A DNA stretch of 19,839 nt, taken from IMG/VR virus record IMGVR_UViG_3300031565_000501. One strand, 5' to 3'. The notes under the pieces were generated by a model. That model saw only the letters and a program-made list of their open reading frames with translations, was not told where the DNA came from and did not search any database. Source of the stretch: a virus. Within the stretch, counting starts at the first letter, position 1, and every line of letters begins with the position of its first letter. Both the position numbers and the translations under genes were made by a program. Shown here one piece after another: positions 10,064 to 17,607 of the stretch.

Positions 10064-10078
10064 TTAAAGAACGTTGTT
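10064..10078 (-). promoter_or_regulatory. conserved motif TTAAAGAACGTTGTT (copy 1)
   Basis: Exact 15-mer repeated at 11068-11082; related copies elsewhere. Confidence 0.35.
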
Positions 10079-11067
10079 AGCATCATTTAGGGGATCGAAC
10101 CCTGTTAACCCTAATTGTTAATGATATAAAAGGTTGAGATTATGCCTTTAGCGCCAGTACATTCGTTGGCCGTACCCAATAACCTGCGACAGTATTGGTT
10201 AACCACTTATCCACCTTCACTAAGAAGGTTTACCAGCGACGCTGCTTCGTTTAAGGAGATAGCATATACTCCATCATCAATAAGATACTCAATGTTTAGA
10301 TCTCCCCTGACCTTGCGAGCCATTTGGTAGCGCTAACTACCTGGGTGCCACCTTCCATCAAATCCCTCAACCTTGCGAGTCTTAGGATCCTCCATTCCCC
10401 GAGGGGTGGAGGCTTAAGCGACTTTCTCTTACTGACTGGTCAAGTCTTTGCGTTTAACAAAATGTTTAAAAGATAGGGTTTTGAGGCCCTGGCCTTCTGA
10501 TCCTAAATCAGATGCTCTACGACTGAGCTAATCTAAAATTTGTTTCCTCTGAATCGGCGCTTGACCAAAGCTACATACCCTTTTGAGGTACGTAATACTC
10601 AACCGATCCTGCGTTTCGGGTTAGGAGTTCCCTACTGTGCCATACTTCGCGATACCGGGTTGCCCCTTAATCACTGGTATTGAATGCTAGCTCTTGACCC
10701 CCACGGGTCTCAAACAGGCGTTCTACATCTTAACAATCGCCGTTCGTAATGTTGACATCGCCTCATGGATGGCTGTCAGACCTAATTTGAATGGCCCTGT
10801 ACCCTTCGCCGAAGCTCAGGCAGTTTACCAATCTTATCTTTTCCAAAAGTCCATTAGACTCATTACTTACCAACTATCTCCGTTGCCGAAGAGGGCCCTT
10901 GGTAGCCCTAGTTGATGCTTGCGTAAAATGACCATCACTGGCGGGGAGGCTGAGGACCTTCCCCCTTTTCCCAGTTGCCCAGGATTATCTCTGCTCACGT
11001 TCCAGACTGGGCGAACCATGTTAGGATTGTTTGCTAGCAATTCACGCATTGCTAATTTTTCAATATG

Positions 11068-11082
11068 TTAAAGAACGTTGTT
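11068..11082 (-). promoter_or_regulatory. conserved motif TTAAAGAACGTTGTT (copy 2), upstream end of the non-coding block
   Basis: Identical to 10064-10078. Sits at the upstream boundary of the GC-rich ORF-free region for minus-strand transcription. Confidence 0.35.
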
Positions 11083-11118
11083 TCAAATAAATCGGCCGCC
11101 GTAGCCACCGATTTGGAA

Positions 11119-11328
11119 TCACTCAATTAAGCAATCCTGGATTTTGACTTGTCCTTTTACAGATAAATCTATTTCCTCAATTGTCTCAATCTCATCTCTC
11201 TCGTTAAAGGATGGGTCTATCTCTAATATAGATTCTGCTTCTTCTTTCGAATCTGCTATCACTAAATAAGATGCTGGACACCATTCCCAAGCTTCGTTAG
11301 ATGTTACGTAAAAAATAAATGCTTTCAT
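11119..11328 (-). CDS. hypothetical small acidic protein
   Basis: Track ORF, 69 aa; motif copies at 11388-11400 and 11465-11482 lie upstream. Confidence 0.4.
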   Translation of the reverse strand: MKAFIFYVTSNEAWEWCPASYLVIADSKEEAESILEIDPSFNERDEIETIEEIDLSVKGQVKIQDCLIE

Positions 11329-11387
11329 GATTTTGAATTTTTAGGTTAATAATCATATCTCCCTAATTCAAAATTTTCTAGCCAATA

Positions 11388-11400
11388 CTTAAAGAACGTA
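11388..11400 (-). promoter_or_regulatory. motif variant CTTAAAGAACGTA
   Basis: About 60 nt upstream of the start of 11119..11328 (-). Confidence 0.3.
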
Positions 11401-11464
11401 GTGTTTCCTTGTTTTGATATTACTGCAAATATACAGTAAAGTTTTAAATTATAAAAATGTTTTT

Positions 11465-11482
11465 CGTTAAAGAAACGTTAAC
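11465..11482 (-). promoter_or_regulatory. motif variant CGTTAAAGAAACGTTAAC (direct repeat CGTTAA x2)
   Basis: Near-identical copy at 17590-17607; both sit in intergenic space upstream of minus-strand genes. Confidence 0.3.
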
Positions 11483-11485
11483 ATG

Positions 11486-11869
11486 TTATTCCCTTTCTTC
11501 TGGAATTTCAATAAATTGAAATTCAATGGACTTTACCATATCATCATAGTCTCTTCCTGCTTCTTCCGTATCTTCATCCCCCTCTTCATAAACCCAGAGT
11601 ATTTCAGACTTGAATTCTGCTTTGTCTAGTTTCTTAAAGATCTTTAGCAACTCTCTTGCAGATGATGTATTAAAGAACTCTAGGTCTATTGTTACTGATA
11701 ATAAACTAGCCGGATCCTTTGCATATTCATCAATGCCATCAAGAATCACTTGATAAAATTCCTTTGTATCCTCCGGAATAGATCTGCCCCTTATATTGAG
11801 AATCCCTTGGCTGCCATCGAAAAGAACTTTTGGAGTTCTCTTCCCTTCCTGTATCTTAATTCTTTCCAT
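11486..11869 (-). CDS. hypothetical acidic protein
   Basis: Track ORF, 127 aa, ordinary composition. Confidence 0.5.
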   Translation of the reverse strand: MERIKIQEGKRTPKVLFDGSQGILNIRGRSIPEDTKEFYQVILDGIDEYAKDPASLLSVTIDLEFFNTSSARELLKIFKKLDKAEFKSEILWVYEEGDEDTEEAGRDYDDMVKSIEFQFIEIPEERE

Positions 11870-11910
11870 AGCTTTTATTTTATTTATTCGAAACTATGAA
11901 ATGGAGAACC

Positions 11911-12075
11911 TTATATAAGGTCAAAGAGATAGTCAGGTTCTAATCCTTCTTCATACAAAAGATCCTCTGGATTTTCTCCTGCCCGGAAACGATCCCTCAT
12001 TTCCTTAACAATTTCATCAGCTTCCAGGAAAGTAAGATCGTCTCGCCTCATTAATACTGCATGTAATTCTGTCAT
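11911..12075 (-). CDS. possible small protein (54 aa, MTELHAVLMRRDDLTFLEADEIVKEMRDRFRAGENPEDLLYEEGLEPDYLFDLI)
   Basis: Hand-translated minus-strand ORF below the track size cutoff; ATG start, TAA stop. Confidence 0.25.
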   Translation of the reverse strand: MTELHAVLMRRDDLTFLEADEIVKEMRDRFRAGENPEDLLYEEGLEPDYLFDLI

Positions 12076-12211
12076 GACATTGGATTTGTTGGTCTTCTGT
12101 TATATTCTACTTTGTATTCCAAAGGATTATCAGATCTCATTGGATTGGTATTCCTTTTTCTTGAGATTGATTTTACCCTGACGGGTATTTGCATTCCAGG
12201 TGAACGTCCCA

Positions 12212-16138: not shown

Positions 16139-16230
16139 GCGCGTCTACCAATTCCGCCATACAGGTCATTACTGACCCGCAGAGGGACTCGAACCCCCAC
16201 GTCCATAAGGACACCTGATTTACAGTCAGT
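16139..16230 (-). pseudogene. circularly permuted tRNA-Tyr-like gene: 3' portion (positions 27-73, anticodon GUA) precedes the 5' portion (positions 1-26)
   Basis: On the minus strand, ACTGA-CTGTAAA-TCAGG-(variable arm)-GGGGG-TTCGAGT-CCCTC-TGCGGGT-C is followed by the spacer AGTAATG and then ACCTGTA-TG-GCG-GAATTGGTAGA-CGC-G. The two acceptor halves are fully complementary (ACCTGTA/TGCGGGT, two G.U pairs). Flanked by ~25-nt direct repeats CGAAGTATCTCTTT..TTACTAC at 15992-16017 and 16231-16255. Confidence 0.35.
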
Positions 16231-16262
16231 CGAAGTATCTCTTTTGTTACTACTGCTAAGTT

Positions 16263-16445
16263 TTAAACATCCCACTCATCCATACCGGCTGAGAGAGCTG
16301 CTTCTATAGAAGACTTTGGATTCTCTTTCATAAAATAAAGAGCTGATAATAGAACTTCCGAAGTTAATTGGTATCTACCAGCTTCATGAATTACTCCCGA
16401 AATAGTATCCAAATCTTCCAATTGTTGTTGTTTTACTGCACCCAT
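16263..16445 (-). CDS. hypothetical small protein
   Basis: Track ORF, 60 aa; motif copy 16487-16502 about 45 nt upstream. Confidence 0.35.
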   Translation of the reverse strand: MGAVKQQQLEDLDTISGVIHEAGRYQLTSEVLLSALYFMKENPKSSIEAALSAGMDEWDV

Positions 16446-16486
16446 GATTAATCAGTTAAGTTAATTTAGGGCAAATGTAATAAAAA

Positions 16487-16502
16487 TTTTCAAAGAACGT
16501 AT
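16487..16502 (-). promoter_or_regulatory. motif variant TTTTCAAAGAACGTAT
   Basis: Upstream of 16263..16445 (-). Confidence 0.3.
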
Positions 16503-16521
16503 TATAATTTTGTTAAATATA

Positions 16522-16561
16522 TGTCAAATAAAAAGGCCTCTCTAACGTATAGGAGGCCTTT
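16522..16561 (-). terminator. rho-independent terminator (minus strand)
   Basis: 9-bp stem AAAGGCCTC/GAGGCCTTT with a 12-nt loop, followed on the minus strand by UUUUAUUUGA. Confidence 0.6.
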
Positions 16562-16750
16562 GCAAGTTTATATAGGGATAGTTGTGTGCTTATCCCTCAA
16601 TACTGCCGCCTCGACTACATTCCGGTAGTTGCTCGAGTAATTGTTGTGGGCAATATGTTAAATAAGTTGTCATCTCTAAATCAATATTATTAAATTATTG
16701 TAATGTATATATGCGTATGAAAATAAAAAGTTTTAATACTTAGCGTAAAA

Positions 16751-16972
16751 TTACACAAAAGTTTCAATGTATTCTAATTCAGCTTCTTTTTCGTGTATTT
16801 TTCTGTCTAATATCTTTTTTACTTGTTTAAAATTTACAACTCCCTTTTCTTTTGCGAGTTGAGTGTAAGCTACTGCAATTCTTTCGCAGGTTTTAAGCTG
16901 ATCTTCGTTAGTACATGAATCAATAATACTAAAAACTTTGGTTATCGGAACTATGTCCAATTGATTTGCCAT
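16751..16972 (-). CDS. hypothetical protein
   Basis: Track ORF, 73 aa. Confidence 0.45.
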   Translation of the reverse strand: MANQLDIVPITKVFSIIDSCTNEDQLKTCERIAVAYTQLAKEKGVVNFKQVKKILDRKIHEKEAELEYIETFV

Positions 16973-16975
16973 TGT

Positions 16976-17272
16976 TTATTCTTTATTTTTAAACCATTCC
17001 TCTATGAACTGGTCTGAATCTTTTCCGTACTTTTCAACATCGACTTTATTTTGTAAAATAAAATTAAGCCAATCTCTTTCTAACTGATCCACCTCTTTTA
17101 CTTCCTGGCGGTTGAACCTATCCATTAGCCATCTTACCCAAGGCCAGTTAGCAGCCATTTCAAAGATAAGTGTGTTATGTATATAATCGGGATCATCACA
17201 GGCATTTTTGATCTTTTCTTGACCAGGCATGCCGCCCATATTCCCAAAAACTATTCTTTGGTGTGTTTGCAT
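16976..17272 (-). CDS. hypothetical protein (N-terminal Gly/Met-rich FGNMGGMPGQ)
   Basis: Track ORF, 98 aa; its start overlaps the stop of the upstream gene. Confidence 0.5.
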   Translation of the reverse strand: MQTHQRIVFGNMGGMPGQEKIKNACDDPDYIHNTLIFEMAANWPWVRWLMDRFNRQEVKEVDQLERDWLNFILQNKVDVEKYGKDSDQFIEEWFKNKE

Positions 17273-17532
17273 TATTTACCCCCAAACATATTACTCATAT
17301 TTCCTCCAAATATATCTCCAAATTGGGAGAAGAGGCTATCAAGAGAAATGTCCTCTTTACATTCTGTAACTTCCAGCTTTTTAAAAGTTGTATGTTTACG
17401 TTTGAGATACTCTTCCAACTTTATCTGAGCCATGACTCCGGAATAGCATTTAGCTATCTTGATCTCTTTGTTCTCTAAAGTACTTTCGTCAACAAATATA
17501 ATTCTGTACTTTATTACGTATTTTTTATACAT
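17272..17532 (-). CDS. hypothetical protein (C-terminal FGGNMSNMFGGK)
   Basis: Track ORF, 86 aa. Confidence 0.5.
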   Translation of the reverse strand: MYKKYVIKYRIIFVDESTLENKEIKIAKCYSGVMAQIKLEEYLKRKHTTFKKLEVTECKEDISLDSLFSQFGDIFGGNMSNMFGGK

Positions 17533-17589
17533 AGCCGATAGATTTGTAGCAAATGTAAATAAAAAATCCTAGACTAAAAAATCCTTAAA

Positions 17590-17607
17590 CGTTAAAGAAA
17601 CGTTAAG
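17590..17607 (-). promoter_or_regulatory. motif variant CGTTAAAGAAACGTTAAG
   Basis: Near-identical to 11465-11482; upstream of 17272..17532 (-). Confidence 0.3.

Follow-up and report, generated by a model that had tools for sequence, protein, structure and literature searches.

A short motif repeated along the tRNA and GOLLD RNA module of a viral DNA stretch of 19,839 nt (the window) probably represents the phage's own copies of BoxA, a signal that acts in newly made RNA rather than at the DNA level. BoxA is a short RNA signal that prevents premature stop of bacterial rRNA transcription; in rrn operons it nucleates an antitermination complex that comprises NusB and NusE with NusA and NusG, together with SuhB and S4. 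In RNA sense the single form of the phage motif reads ACGUUCUUUAA(A/C)AUAUUGA. We place its action in RNA because it lies downstream of −7 boxes, is wedged between tRNA genes, lacks dyad symmetry and inverted copies, and matches the BoxA of host rrn operons. The observations behind this assignment are the sequence identity with BoxA, the strand and positions of the copies, the occurrence of the sequence in rrn and tRNA operons of hosts, and the association with GOLLD RNA.

Copies of the motif in the window

The window carries six good BoxA copies and one doubtful variant, none of them outside the tRNA/GOLLD module (Table 1). Every copy is found on the minus strand, the one that is transcribed and that also bears all 12 tRNAs, the GOLLD RNA and nearly all ORFs. 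In RNA sense there are four matches (0.28 expected) to GYTCTTTAANA, the consensus published for BoxA by Baniulyte et al. 2017 (PMC5725501), and seven (1.25 expected) to the shorter GYTCTTTRA, with 4/4 and 7/7 matches on the minus strand. A scan with a 13-mer allowing up to two mismatches gave 6 matches where 0.64 were expected; of these, the ones at 1530 and 13628 are spurious. Shortness and AT-richness of the motif count against the BoxA assignment. Three of the perfect consensus matches are intergenic (10062–10072, 11066–11076 and 15695–15705), and the fourth, in the coding sequence of a SiaC-like ORF, may have arisen by chance or may be functional. Three further copies deviate by a G at position 9 or a T at position 11. 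Residues G2, C5, U6 and U8 of BoxA have been reported as critical or contacted, with A or G tolerated at position 9 (PMC3177189). These four residues are kept in the window copies, the exception being the degenerate core GTTCATTGA at 13901–13909, which fails at U6; in lambda BoxA, substitutions at this residue are deleterious (PMC3177189). The same GTTCATTGA variant stands behind a different tRNA in the divergent relative L007 (copy at 8092).

Table 1. Positions of the motif copies and associated features in the window
Feature	Sequence	Position	Strand	Context
TTAACG-N5-TTAACG direct repeat		17590–17606	−	32 nt upstream of −7 box TACATTTG (17550–17557); family D8
Near-consensus −7 box	TTTATTTG	16525–16532	−	ahead of BoxA copy 16482–16500
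BoxA copy	ACGTTCTTTGAAAATTTTT	16482–16500	−	start of tRNA array; 26 nt downstream of −7 box
BoxA copy	AAGTTCTTTAAAATATAGT	15689–15707	−	perfect GYTCTTTAANA; starts 4–5 nt past tRNA-Gln 3′ end
26-bp palindrome		15278–15303	−	11-bp RNA hairpin in structured tRNA-Pro/tRNA-Leu spacer (15229–15331)
BoxA copy	AAGTTCTTTGAAAGTTTTT	14911–14929	−	9 nt past 3′ end of tRNA 14936–15012
Doubtful BoxA-like variant	AAGTTCATTGAAATTATTG	13893–13911	−	5 nt past tRNA-Leu(UAA); A replaces U6
Core match	GTTCTTTAATA	11668–11678	−	inside SiaC-like ORF
TTAACG-N5-TTAACG direct repeat		11465–11481	−	31 nt upstream of −7 box 11426–11433
Bacteroidota sigma-A type −7 box	TATATTTG	11426–11433	−	28 nt upstream of BoxA 11381–11399
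BoxA copy	ACGTTCTTTAAGTATTGGC	11381–11399	−	5′ leader; 28 nt downstream of −7 box TATATTTG
Hairpin	AAATCGGT...GCCGATTT	11089–11114	−	upstream of GOLLD BoxA
Sequence following hairpin	TTTATTTG	11084–11091	−	follows hairpin 11089–11114
BoxA copy	ACGTTCTTTAACATATTGA	11060–11078	−	directly 5′ of GOLLD RNA; perfect GYTCTTTAANA; hairpin 11089–11114 upstream
GOLLD RNA 3′ domain		10131–10610	−	Rfam RF02032, 160 bits
BoxA copy	ACGTTCTTTAAAATATTAT	10056–10074	−	just 3′ of GOLLD's tRNA-like 3′ end; perfect GYTCTTTAANA
One-mismatch repeat copy	TTAACGATCAATTAACA	4401–4417	−	56 nt upstream of −7 box TAAATTTG (4337–4344)

A first-pass annotation had treated nine sites as one motif. Its 15-mer TTAAAGAACGTTGTT is found exactly at 10064–10078 and 11068–11082, its doubled form CGTTAAAGAAACGTTAA and its 26-bp palindrome at the positions given in Table 1; the variants are also present (11389–11401, 14918–14930, 15697–15709 and 16489–16501), but 1–2 nt away from where they had been placed. 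However, the sites fall into three different things, namely the single form, a TTAACG-N5-TTAACG repeat and a hairpin palindrome. The description of all copies as intergenic holds apart from the additional core copy in coding sequence (11668–11678), and the degenerate copy at 13901–13909 had been overlooked. The left 9 kb is free of the single form as had been claimed, but not of the doubled-type repeat, of which a copy with one mismatch lies at 4401–4417. A location 45–140 nt upstream of genes proved not to be the informative one: the copies are placed either 4–9 nt past tRNA 3′ ends or 26–28 nt past −7 boxes.

Four window copies begin 4–9 nt past a tRNA or tRNA-like 3′ end. No tRNA precedes the copies at 11381–11399 and 16482–16500. 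The latter is kept in L007 (copy at 5924) with differing flanks; a good −7 box at 16472–16479 lies 11 nt downstream of it, so that transcripts from that promoter would be without this copy. The 28-nt spacing at 11381–11399 falls in the 26–28 nt mode of GOLLD leaders (see below), and its −7 box is the likely promoter of a unit composed of BoxA, a 69-aa ORF, a second BoxA and GOLLD. As the Bacteroidota −7 box spans −12 to −5 (PMC9723704), a spacing of 26–28 nt corresponds to a motif position of about +22 to +24 in the predicted transcript. Two window copies have no consensus −7 box at this spacing. At 11060–11078, where it is missing at the usual distance, the copy is preceded by a terminator-like hairpin; this hairpin may represent either a boxB-like stem or, in front of the GOLLD BoxA, a weak intrinsic terminator. 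The placement of this copy and that of the copy at 16482–16500 relative to its downstream −7 box count against the BoxA assignment. A terminator-like hairpin is also seen at about 16532–16561.

Copies of the motif in host operons, GOLLD loci and other phages

Two Bacteroidota MAGs, L094 and L124, contain the exact 18-mer of the motif ∼100–126 nt ahead of the 16S rRNA gene; these were the only two rrn leaders recovered, and they come from related MAGs. In both leaders the 18-mer stands downstream of TACCTTTG promoter boxes and 126–127 nt before AGAGTTTGAT of 16S (start at 6693 in L124 according to Rfam); L124 has a second BoxA-like sequence, ACGTTCTTTGG, behind an upstream box. Two examples tie the motif to rrn leaders of the Bacteroidota, to which the host of the window phage probably belongs; Bacteroidota genomes also gave other hits to the 18-mer. 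Phage and host are both uncultured. In a Flavobacteriaceae tRNA operon (L095) the 18-mer fills the gap between tRNA-Thr and tRNA-Tyr, wedged between the two genes with, as for the L007 copy at 8945, no more than 0–5 nt to spare. A boxA call published for the CRISPR leader of a member of the Bacteroidia, Odoribacter (AGTTCTTTGACATGTTGAAA; Stringer et al. 2020, PMC7665894), is closely like the window copy CGTTCTTTAACATATTGAAA.

The whole GOLLD RNA probably spans about 11059 to about 10080, with a tRNA embedded in its 3′ domain (10467–10537) and BoxA copies on both sides (11060–11078 and 10056–10074). When three divergent GOLLD loci were aligned (mean column identity 63%), BoxA was the longest invariant block. 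We scanned IMG/VR with a 3′ sequence block without BoxA and found 94 unique GOLLD loci, which may sample one GOLLD subclass only, since the probe was built from three BoxA-bearing loci. A sense-strand BoxA was present at the GOLLD 5′ edge in 61 of the 69 loci with enough upstream sequence and absent in eight. Over all 94 loci we counted 77 sense and 0 antisense matches at this edge; the peak is sharp, with 52 sense and no antisense matches in a single 200-nt bin (75 loci). TAnnTTTG occurs upstream of BoxA in 54 of the 61 positive loci, and in 45 of these 54 leaders the spacer from box to BoxA measures 26–28 nt. Between the two elements lies a hairpin with compensated stem changes; most GOLLD loci show the order −7 box, hairpin, BoxA, like an rrn leader.

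In L028, in L047 and in the genome locus L066, BoxA follows a −7 box after 17–18 nt. The seven copies of a 372-kb contig (L027) are all co-oriented with its tRNAs. Between L007 and the window the tRNA region is divergent and mosaic, and L007 carries the motif at non-orthologous sites, one copy (8945) only 4 nt before a tRNA; the homology breakpoints fall elsewhere than on the motif. Nine copies lie within 15 nt past the 3′ end of a co-oriented tRNA, compared to about 0.6 expected by our own arithmetic, and none within 15 nt past that of an opposite-strand tRNA.

This proximity to tRNA 3′ ends, seen for nine copies across phages and four in the window, together with the copies flanking GOLLD, would also fit an RNA-processing signal, for example a conserved tRNA 3′ trailer or a leader on which RNase Z, RNase E or a phage nuclease would act to define tRNA and GOLLD ends. 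The tRNA genes concerned do not encode CCA, so the tRNAs need endonucleolytic 3′ processing. However, many copies are situated ∼22–24 nt into the predicted primary transcript with no upstream RNA gene to release (45 of 54 GOLLD leaders; 11397 in the window), the BoxA consensus is matched at NusB-contacted residues and the motif occupies the rrn leader position. We consider a processing signal quite unlikely as the explanation; processing and BoxA roles are compatible and not mutually exclusive.

The first-pass annotation had proposed a phage-specific promoter, or an operator for a phage DNA-binding protein, driving a temporally distinct tRNA/ncRNA regulon. A regulatory motif that is real, directional and confined to the tRNA/ncRNA module was indeed recovered, and its intergenic copies in one orientation agree with that proposal, as do the terminator-like hairpins ahead of some copies (11089–11114 and about 16532–16561), where a promoter would be expected, a near half-site within the palindrome and the doubled form truly upstream of −7 boxes. 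However, the single form lies inside transcripts predicted to start from host-type −7 boxes. Where tRNA genes abut it at either end (L095), or a tRNA follows after 4 nt (L007, 8945), there is no room for a start site; with respect to predicted starts, we rejected it as a promoter. As a palindromic operator it was rejected because dyad symmetry is absent and inverted occurrences are zero. Its identity with sequences in host rrn leaders and tRNA operons means that it is not phage-specific, and the palindrome, which lacks one T of the motif and for which no L007 counterpart was found, folds into an RNA hairpin. The single form is most likely no promoter or operator for a phage factor, and we regard the promoter or operator reading as very improbable.

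Passive relics of host tRNA operon capture, or short stretches of homology that do no more than help cassettes to shuffle, neither contributing to expression, would explain the same tRNA-plus-BoxA junction in the host operon L095 and the mosaic tRNA region, but are highly unlikely given the two copies without a preceding tRNA, the motif's rank as the most conserved block among divergent GOLLD loci, its constant location in 61 of the 69 loci, where antisense copies are absent, and homology breakpoints off the motif.

Proposed role of the BoxA copies

The BoxA copies are likely best explained as loading sites for host NusB/NusE. RNA polymerase of the probable Bacteroidota host would start at TAnnTTTG-type promoters, and the emerging motif (candidate target RNA: ACGUUCUUUAAAAUAUUGA) would be bound by the host NusB-NusE(S10) dimer, which together with NusA and NusG would turn the polymerase into an rrn-type antitermination complex. 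This complex may resist Rho termination and thereby shield long untranslated phage transcripts; such a need would arise because most of the 7.5-kb module is not translated, containing as it does about 13 tRNAs along with tRNA-like fragments, GOLLD and structured spacers. As tRNA processing would sever the transcript between polymerase and preceding BoxA, the copies 4–9 nt past tRNA 3′ ends, like those flanking GOLLD, would serve to reload the complex. The BoxA in the rrn 16S–23S spacer is thought to reload it likewise, and in rRNA operons the complex additionally gains elongation speed and assists the folding of large RNAs.

The resemblance to rrn BoxA extends from the core GYTCTTTAANA and the 18-mer shared with two Bacteroidota rrn leaders to the location on the transcribed strand a short way downstream of a promoter (here predicted), the hairpin 5′ of BoxA in boxB-boxA order, copies behind internal tRNAs that resemble the spacer BoxA, and an RNA to be protected that is untranslated and highly structured. 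In contrast to rrn BoxA, the phage element is virus-encoded, stands ahead of tRNA arrays and GOLLD instead of rRNA, and occurs in 6–7 copies within 7.5 kb, whereas rrn operons have two (leader and spacer). Known BoxA elements outside rRNA precede CRISPR arrays (Stringer et al. 2020, PMC7665894) as well as suhB and other genes (Baniulyte et al. 2017, PMC5725501). The CRISPR case likewise represents reuse of BoxA for shielding an untranslated, processed and repetitive transcript from Rho, as we infer for the phage, and in Bacteroidetes comes with the same extended sequence (Odoribacter AGTTCTTTGACATGTTGAAA). However, the CRISPR and suhB elements are chromosomal, with one BoxA per array, while those described here are phage-borne, repeated along an array and tied to a giant ncRNA.

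As in lambda, a phage-carried BoxA would recruit host NusB/NusE for termination-resistant transcription. The lambda nut site combines boxA and boxB with the phage protein N, which binds boxB 3′ of boxA. Any hairpins seen here are located 5′ of BoxA, which is the rrn order, and the element is a full rrn-type BoxA as compared to the weaker lambda version; inspection shows AT-rich, unconserved sequence 3′ of the copies, and none of the 10 ORFs scanned contains an N-like domain. PeSL cassettes of T4-type phages, in which a repeated early promoter with a stem-loop flanks mobile gene cassettes, are similar in that a short regulatory sequence is repeated at small-cassette junctions in a hyperplastic phage region. 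However, PeSLs are promoters, whereas the phage element follows promoters and is identical to an RNA signal of the host.

The doubled form and the palindrome

A promoter-associated DNA site, as in the earlier proposal, is still reasonable for the doubled form, but not for the single form. TTAACG-N5-TTAACG has four sites in this phage, each 21–56 nt upstream of a −7 box; it is a phased DNA-level repeat tied to promoters and not BoxA. The palindrome was rejected as BoxA because its stem GTTCTTAAA is one T short, and a search of L007 yielded no equivalent. Folding of the palindrome region gave an MFE of −31.4 kcal/mol with a z score of −2.5.

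A minus-strand motif matching BoxA

Nearly all ORFs in the window, 12 of 12 tRNA genes and the giant non-coding RNA GOLLD are encoded on the minus strand, so the sense of the repeated motif is given by its reverse complement. Read this way, the six clear single-form copies share (A/C)(A/C)GTTCTTT(A/G)A and then run into an AT-rich tail; the sense-strand consensus is ACGTTCTTTAA(A/C)ATATTGA. All strings quoted in the first-pass annotation are present in the sequence, at most 2 nt from where it had placed them. The 13-mer, searched with up to two mismatches, matched six times in the window against 0.64 expected, two of these matches being spurious. 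The pattern GYTCTTTRA yielded seven matches (1.25 expected from shuffles), all on the minus strand: six are intergenic and one lies within the SiaC-like ORF.

The published BoxA consensus is GYTCTTTAANA (PMC5725501). We found four perfect matches to it in the window against 0.28 expected, all four on the transcribed strand. Structural work on NusB-NusE-BoxA identified G2, C5 and U6 as critical, with U8 stacking on F122 of NusB and either A or G tolerated at position 9 (PMC3177189). G2, C5, U6 and U8 are all kept in the window motif.

We scanned the exact 18-mer ACGTTCTTTAAAATATTG against one genome per prokaryotic species, and many of the matches were in Bacteroidota; matches in Clostridia were set aside, since they seem to belong to a conserved stretch of coding sequence. 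The only two rrn leaders recovered with it come from MAGs (L094 and L124); in both, 126–127 nt separate the 18-mer from the conserved 16S 5′ sequence downstream, the 16S start of L124 being at 6693 according to Rfam. The L124 leader carries two TACCTTTG boxes with a BoxA-like sequence after each, which resembles tandem rrn promoters. In a Flavobacteriaceae MAG (L095) a TACATTTG promoter is followed by tRNA-Thr, three bases, the 18-mer and immediately tRNA-Tyr; tRNA end and motif are joined here as they are in the phage. A Cytophagales locus (L066) shows TACCTTTG, then 17 nt, then the motif. Furthermore, the BoxA called upstream of an Odoribacter CRISPR array, AGTTCTTTGACATGTTGAAA (PMC7665894 supplement), is close to the window copy CGTTCTTTAACATATTGAAA. 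The window motif is thus, at the sequence level, a match to the BoxA of Bacteroidota rrn leaders. The phage host is probably a member of the Bacteroidota as well, since TAnnTTTG boxes are present and no Shine-Dalgarno sequence was found ahead of the ORFs inspected in the window.

The 18-mer also recurs in conserved intergenic Bacteroidota contexts that are neither rrn nor tRNA: in Croceitalea and other Flavobacteriaceae (L054, L093, L105, L109), in Aequorivita (L090, L091, L112, L118, L119) and in three copies within a single Lewinellaceae genome (L051, L063, L117). One such context follows the L19 leader and rplS. Judged by sequence, these sites suggest further Nus-factor targets in the phylum.

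Positions of the motif copies and of neighbouring features (window coordinates unless a locus is named)
Feature	Position	Strand	Context
BoxA copy	16498	-	26 nt downstream of near-consensus TTTATTTG
BoxA copy	15705	-	3′ of tRNA-Gln
BoxA copy	14927	-	3′ of tRNA at 14936
Degenerate copy GTTCATTGA	13901-13909	-	3′ of tRNA-Leu
BoxA copy	11397	-	28 nt downstream of TATATTTG, a predicted Bacteroidota sigma-A -7 box
BoxA copy	11076	-	immediately 5′ of GOLLD; hairpin upstream of the copy
BoxA copy	10072	-	3′ of GOLLD's tRNA-like 3′ end
GOLLD	10131-10610		Rfam match, 160 bits; embedded tRNA
TTAACG repeat	17590-17606	-
TTAACG repeat	11465-11481	-
TTAACG repeat, one mismatch	4401-4417	-
TTAACG repeat	L005 2252-2268		just past the window's right end
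Three phased TTAACG repeats	L010 1792-1824		ahead of TATATTTG
Palindrome	15278-15303		tRNA-Pro/tRNA-Leu spacer
SiaC-family ORF	11486-11869	-	E 4.7e-32
Radical-SAM ORF	12212-13222	-	phrog_24834, E 3.5e-145
Split tRNA-like gene	~14140-14335	-	halves ~130 nt apart
Truncated class-II tRNA-like pieces	16105-16244, ~15999-16012, ~10027-10040	-	Tyr/Leu-like
SRP RNA, small	L027 11344-11427	-	immediately upstream of BoxA and GOLLD
tmRNA	L047 516-872	+	close to tRNA array
Suppressor-type tRNA, anticodon CUA	3714-3787	-	labelled tRNA-Pyl by ARAGORN
Suppressor tRNA UUA	L027 2608-2680
Suppressor tRNA UCA	L028 7820-7896
822-aa phage ORF	5921-8389	-	MVP_shoulder E 1.4e-27
Second Band_7/flotillin ORF	L005 604-2196		just past the window's right end

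Placement after tRNAs and in the GOLLD leader

Four copies in the window start 4–9 nt past the 3′ end of a tRNA or tRNA-like element. Others follow predicted promoters, where the TAnnTTTG consensus spans -12 to -5 (PMC9723704, PMC7366714); the promoter contexts are atypical for two window copies and the start sites are predictions. The TTGACA...TATAAT upstream of copy 16498 was rejected as a perfect sigma-70 promoter, as its spacer is 15 nt, it was missing from the scan output and its sequence is degenerate in L007, a relative that diverges from the window in the tRNA region. The TTTG inside the motif was likewise dismissed as a Bacteroidota -33 element, its 11-nt spacing to the -7 box being wrong. 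A signal acting purely in RNA processing leaves unaccounted for those copies that lie roughly at +22 to +24 of predicted primary transcripts.

The BoxA arrangement recurs in other phages. Upstream of the radical-SAM gene, whose protein is encoded in identical form on five contigs, L007 aligns with the window at ~80% identity or not at all. Its motif sites lie after other tRNAs, 4 nt before tRNA-Leu and at the site orthologous to 16498. The motif was absent from the radical-SAM homologue loci L001–L004, which are too distant. When IMG/VR was scanned with ACAACGTTCTTTAAMAT, matches came from several low-GC contigs unrelated to one another, and there the match runs past the pattern to ...AATATTGA. 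A 372-kb contig (L027) carries seven copies, all co-oriented and interspersed among tRNA clusters, and in two contigs (L028 and L047) a -7 box is followed after 17–18 nt by BoxA and then by tRNAs. Across 125 loci, nine copies lie within 15 nt past the 3′ end of a co-oriented tRNA, against ~0.6 expected by our own arithmetic, and none after an opposite-strand tRNA. Against the isolated phages of INPHARED, the complete window matched at tRNAs only (megablast), and the GOLLD region had no match (blastn).

A permissive Rfam search of 9000–17000 revealed no additional RNA family. According to Rfam, GOLLD also lies just downstream of BoxA in L024 and L027, and in a three-locus alignment of GOLLD (63% mean column identity) BoxA is the longest invariant block. 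Independently of BoxA, we scanned IMG/VR with a conserved GOLLD 3′ block, a probe that may cover a single GOLLD subclass, and obtained at least 120 loci, 94 of them unique. Among the matches listed, sense GYTCTTTRA clusters 600–1200 nt upstream of this block (77 matches, 52 of them, in 75 loci, within one 200-nt bin), against no antisense match in the same interval and a background of 0–3 per bin. Of the 69 listed GOLLD loci whose upstream sequence was long enough, 61 had a sense BoxA, the median position being -826 nt. Such a fixed and strand-specific occurrence in 61 of 69 listed loci is left unexplained by passive hitch-hiking.

The leaders that carry this BoxA have further features in common. 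TAnnTTTG occurs within 60 nt upstream of BoxA in 54 of the 61 listed loci, and in 45 of these 54 the spacer from box to BoxA is 26–28 nt. Between the two lies a short hairpin whose stem, read by eye, shows compensated changes (AUCGG/CCGAU, UCAGG/CCUGA, UUCGG/CCGAA, CUUGG/CCAAG); RNAalifold returned no consensus structure for the GOLLD leaders, the alignment being heterogeneous. Promoter, hairpin and BoxA follow one another as in the rrn leader, where boxB precedes boxA.

The TTAACG repeat and the palindrome

The first-pass annotation had read motif and palindrome together as a phage-specific promoter or operator of a tRNA/ncRNA regulon. For the single form this fits neither its position nor its asymmetry nor its occurrence in host rrn leaders. 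The idea of a regulator site holds up better for the doubled form, a direct repeat TTAACG-N5-TTAACG in 11-bp phase, observed 3–4 times against 0.03–0.07 expected. Each repeat lies 21–56 nt upstream of a TAnnTTTG box preceding protein genes, and it is probably bound, as DNA, by a regulator. In IMG/VR the exact 17-mer occurs mostly in unrelated or coding contexts, L010 being the exception. We rejected the doubled form as a BoxA: when CUUUAA is used to anchor the alignment, U falls on the critical G2 position. In addition, the copy at L005 2252 has its extra T in a different place yet keeps the TTAACG spacing.

The palindrome lacks one T of the motif and does not belong with it. It forms an 11-bp hairpin in a closed, structured spacer (MFE -31.4 kcal/mol, z -2.5), and L007 yielded no counterpart.

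A putative role for BoxA, and other genes and RNAs

BoxA is a classic element; what counts here is its context in phage tRNA arrays and GOLLD, and our literature search found no paper tying BoxA or Nus factors to either. Nascent BoxA RNA would bind host NusB-NusE(S10), which with NusA and NusG would make of the polymerase an antitermination complex of the rrn type, and this may shield the ~7.5-kb, largely untranslated module from Rho. Once processing by RNase P or RNase Z has severed the connection with the preceding BoxA, a copy behind the tRNA would load the complex anew, as is thought for the spacer BoxA of rrn operons. The chaperone activity ascribed to the complex would suit GOLLD, a very large, intricately folded RNA that has many members >800 nt, assembles into 14-mers and had its structure solved recently (PMC12286853). 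We propose tentatively, with somewhat more doubt than belief, that Bacteroidota phages routinely co-opt the host BoxA/Nus antitermination and RNA-chaperone complex for GOLLD and tRNA arrays, and that nearly all members of this GOLLD class have BoxA as an integral part of their 5′ end.

If true, this would account for the expression of kilobases of untranslated phage RNA (tRNA arrays and GOLLD) in Rho-bearing hosts, and BoxA control would reach viral non-coding RNA beside the known CRISPR arrays and suhB. GOLLD would gain a defined predicted transcription unit of host-type promoter, boxB-like hairpin and BoxA, and its predicted dependence on host Nus factors would be useful for its expression or perturbation in vivo. 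Through its leader, a GOLLD transcript could also hold on to NusB and ribosomal protein S10; were these RNAs very abundant, the leader could even titrate Nus factors off host rRNA operons. The motif may also serve as a simple annotation marker and a clue to the host phylum of uncultured phages.

Several other features were noted. The SiaC-family and radical-SAM ORFs lie inside the tRNA/ncRNA module, and the flanks of the five metagenomic contigs with the identical radical-SAM protein differ. The split tRNA-like gene consists of an acceptor/D-arm half and a T-arm/acceptor half; Rfam gave no intron match and a sub-threshold YrlA match only (E 0.083). The truncated class-II pieces have a common 5′ segment ...AGAGATACTTCG, and in L024 and L027 segments like it, ...GATACTTCGA..., come after BoxA copies. 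The suppressor tRNAs, two of them on motif-bearing contigs, raise the possibility that these phages recode stop codons. Finally, the 822-aa ORF combines the shoulder and repeat domains of Major Vault Protein with an SPFH/Band_7 domain.
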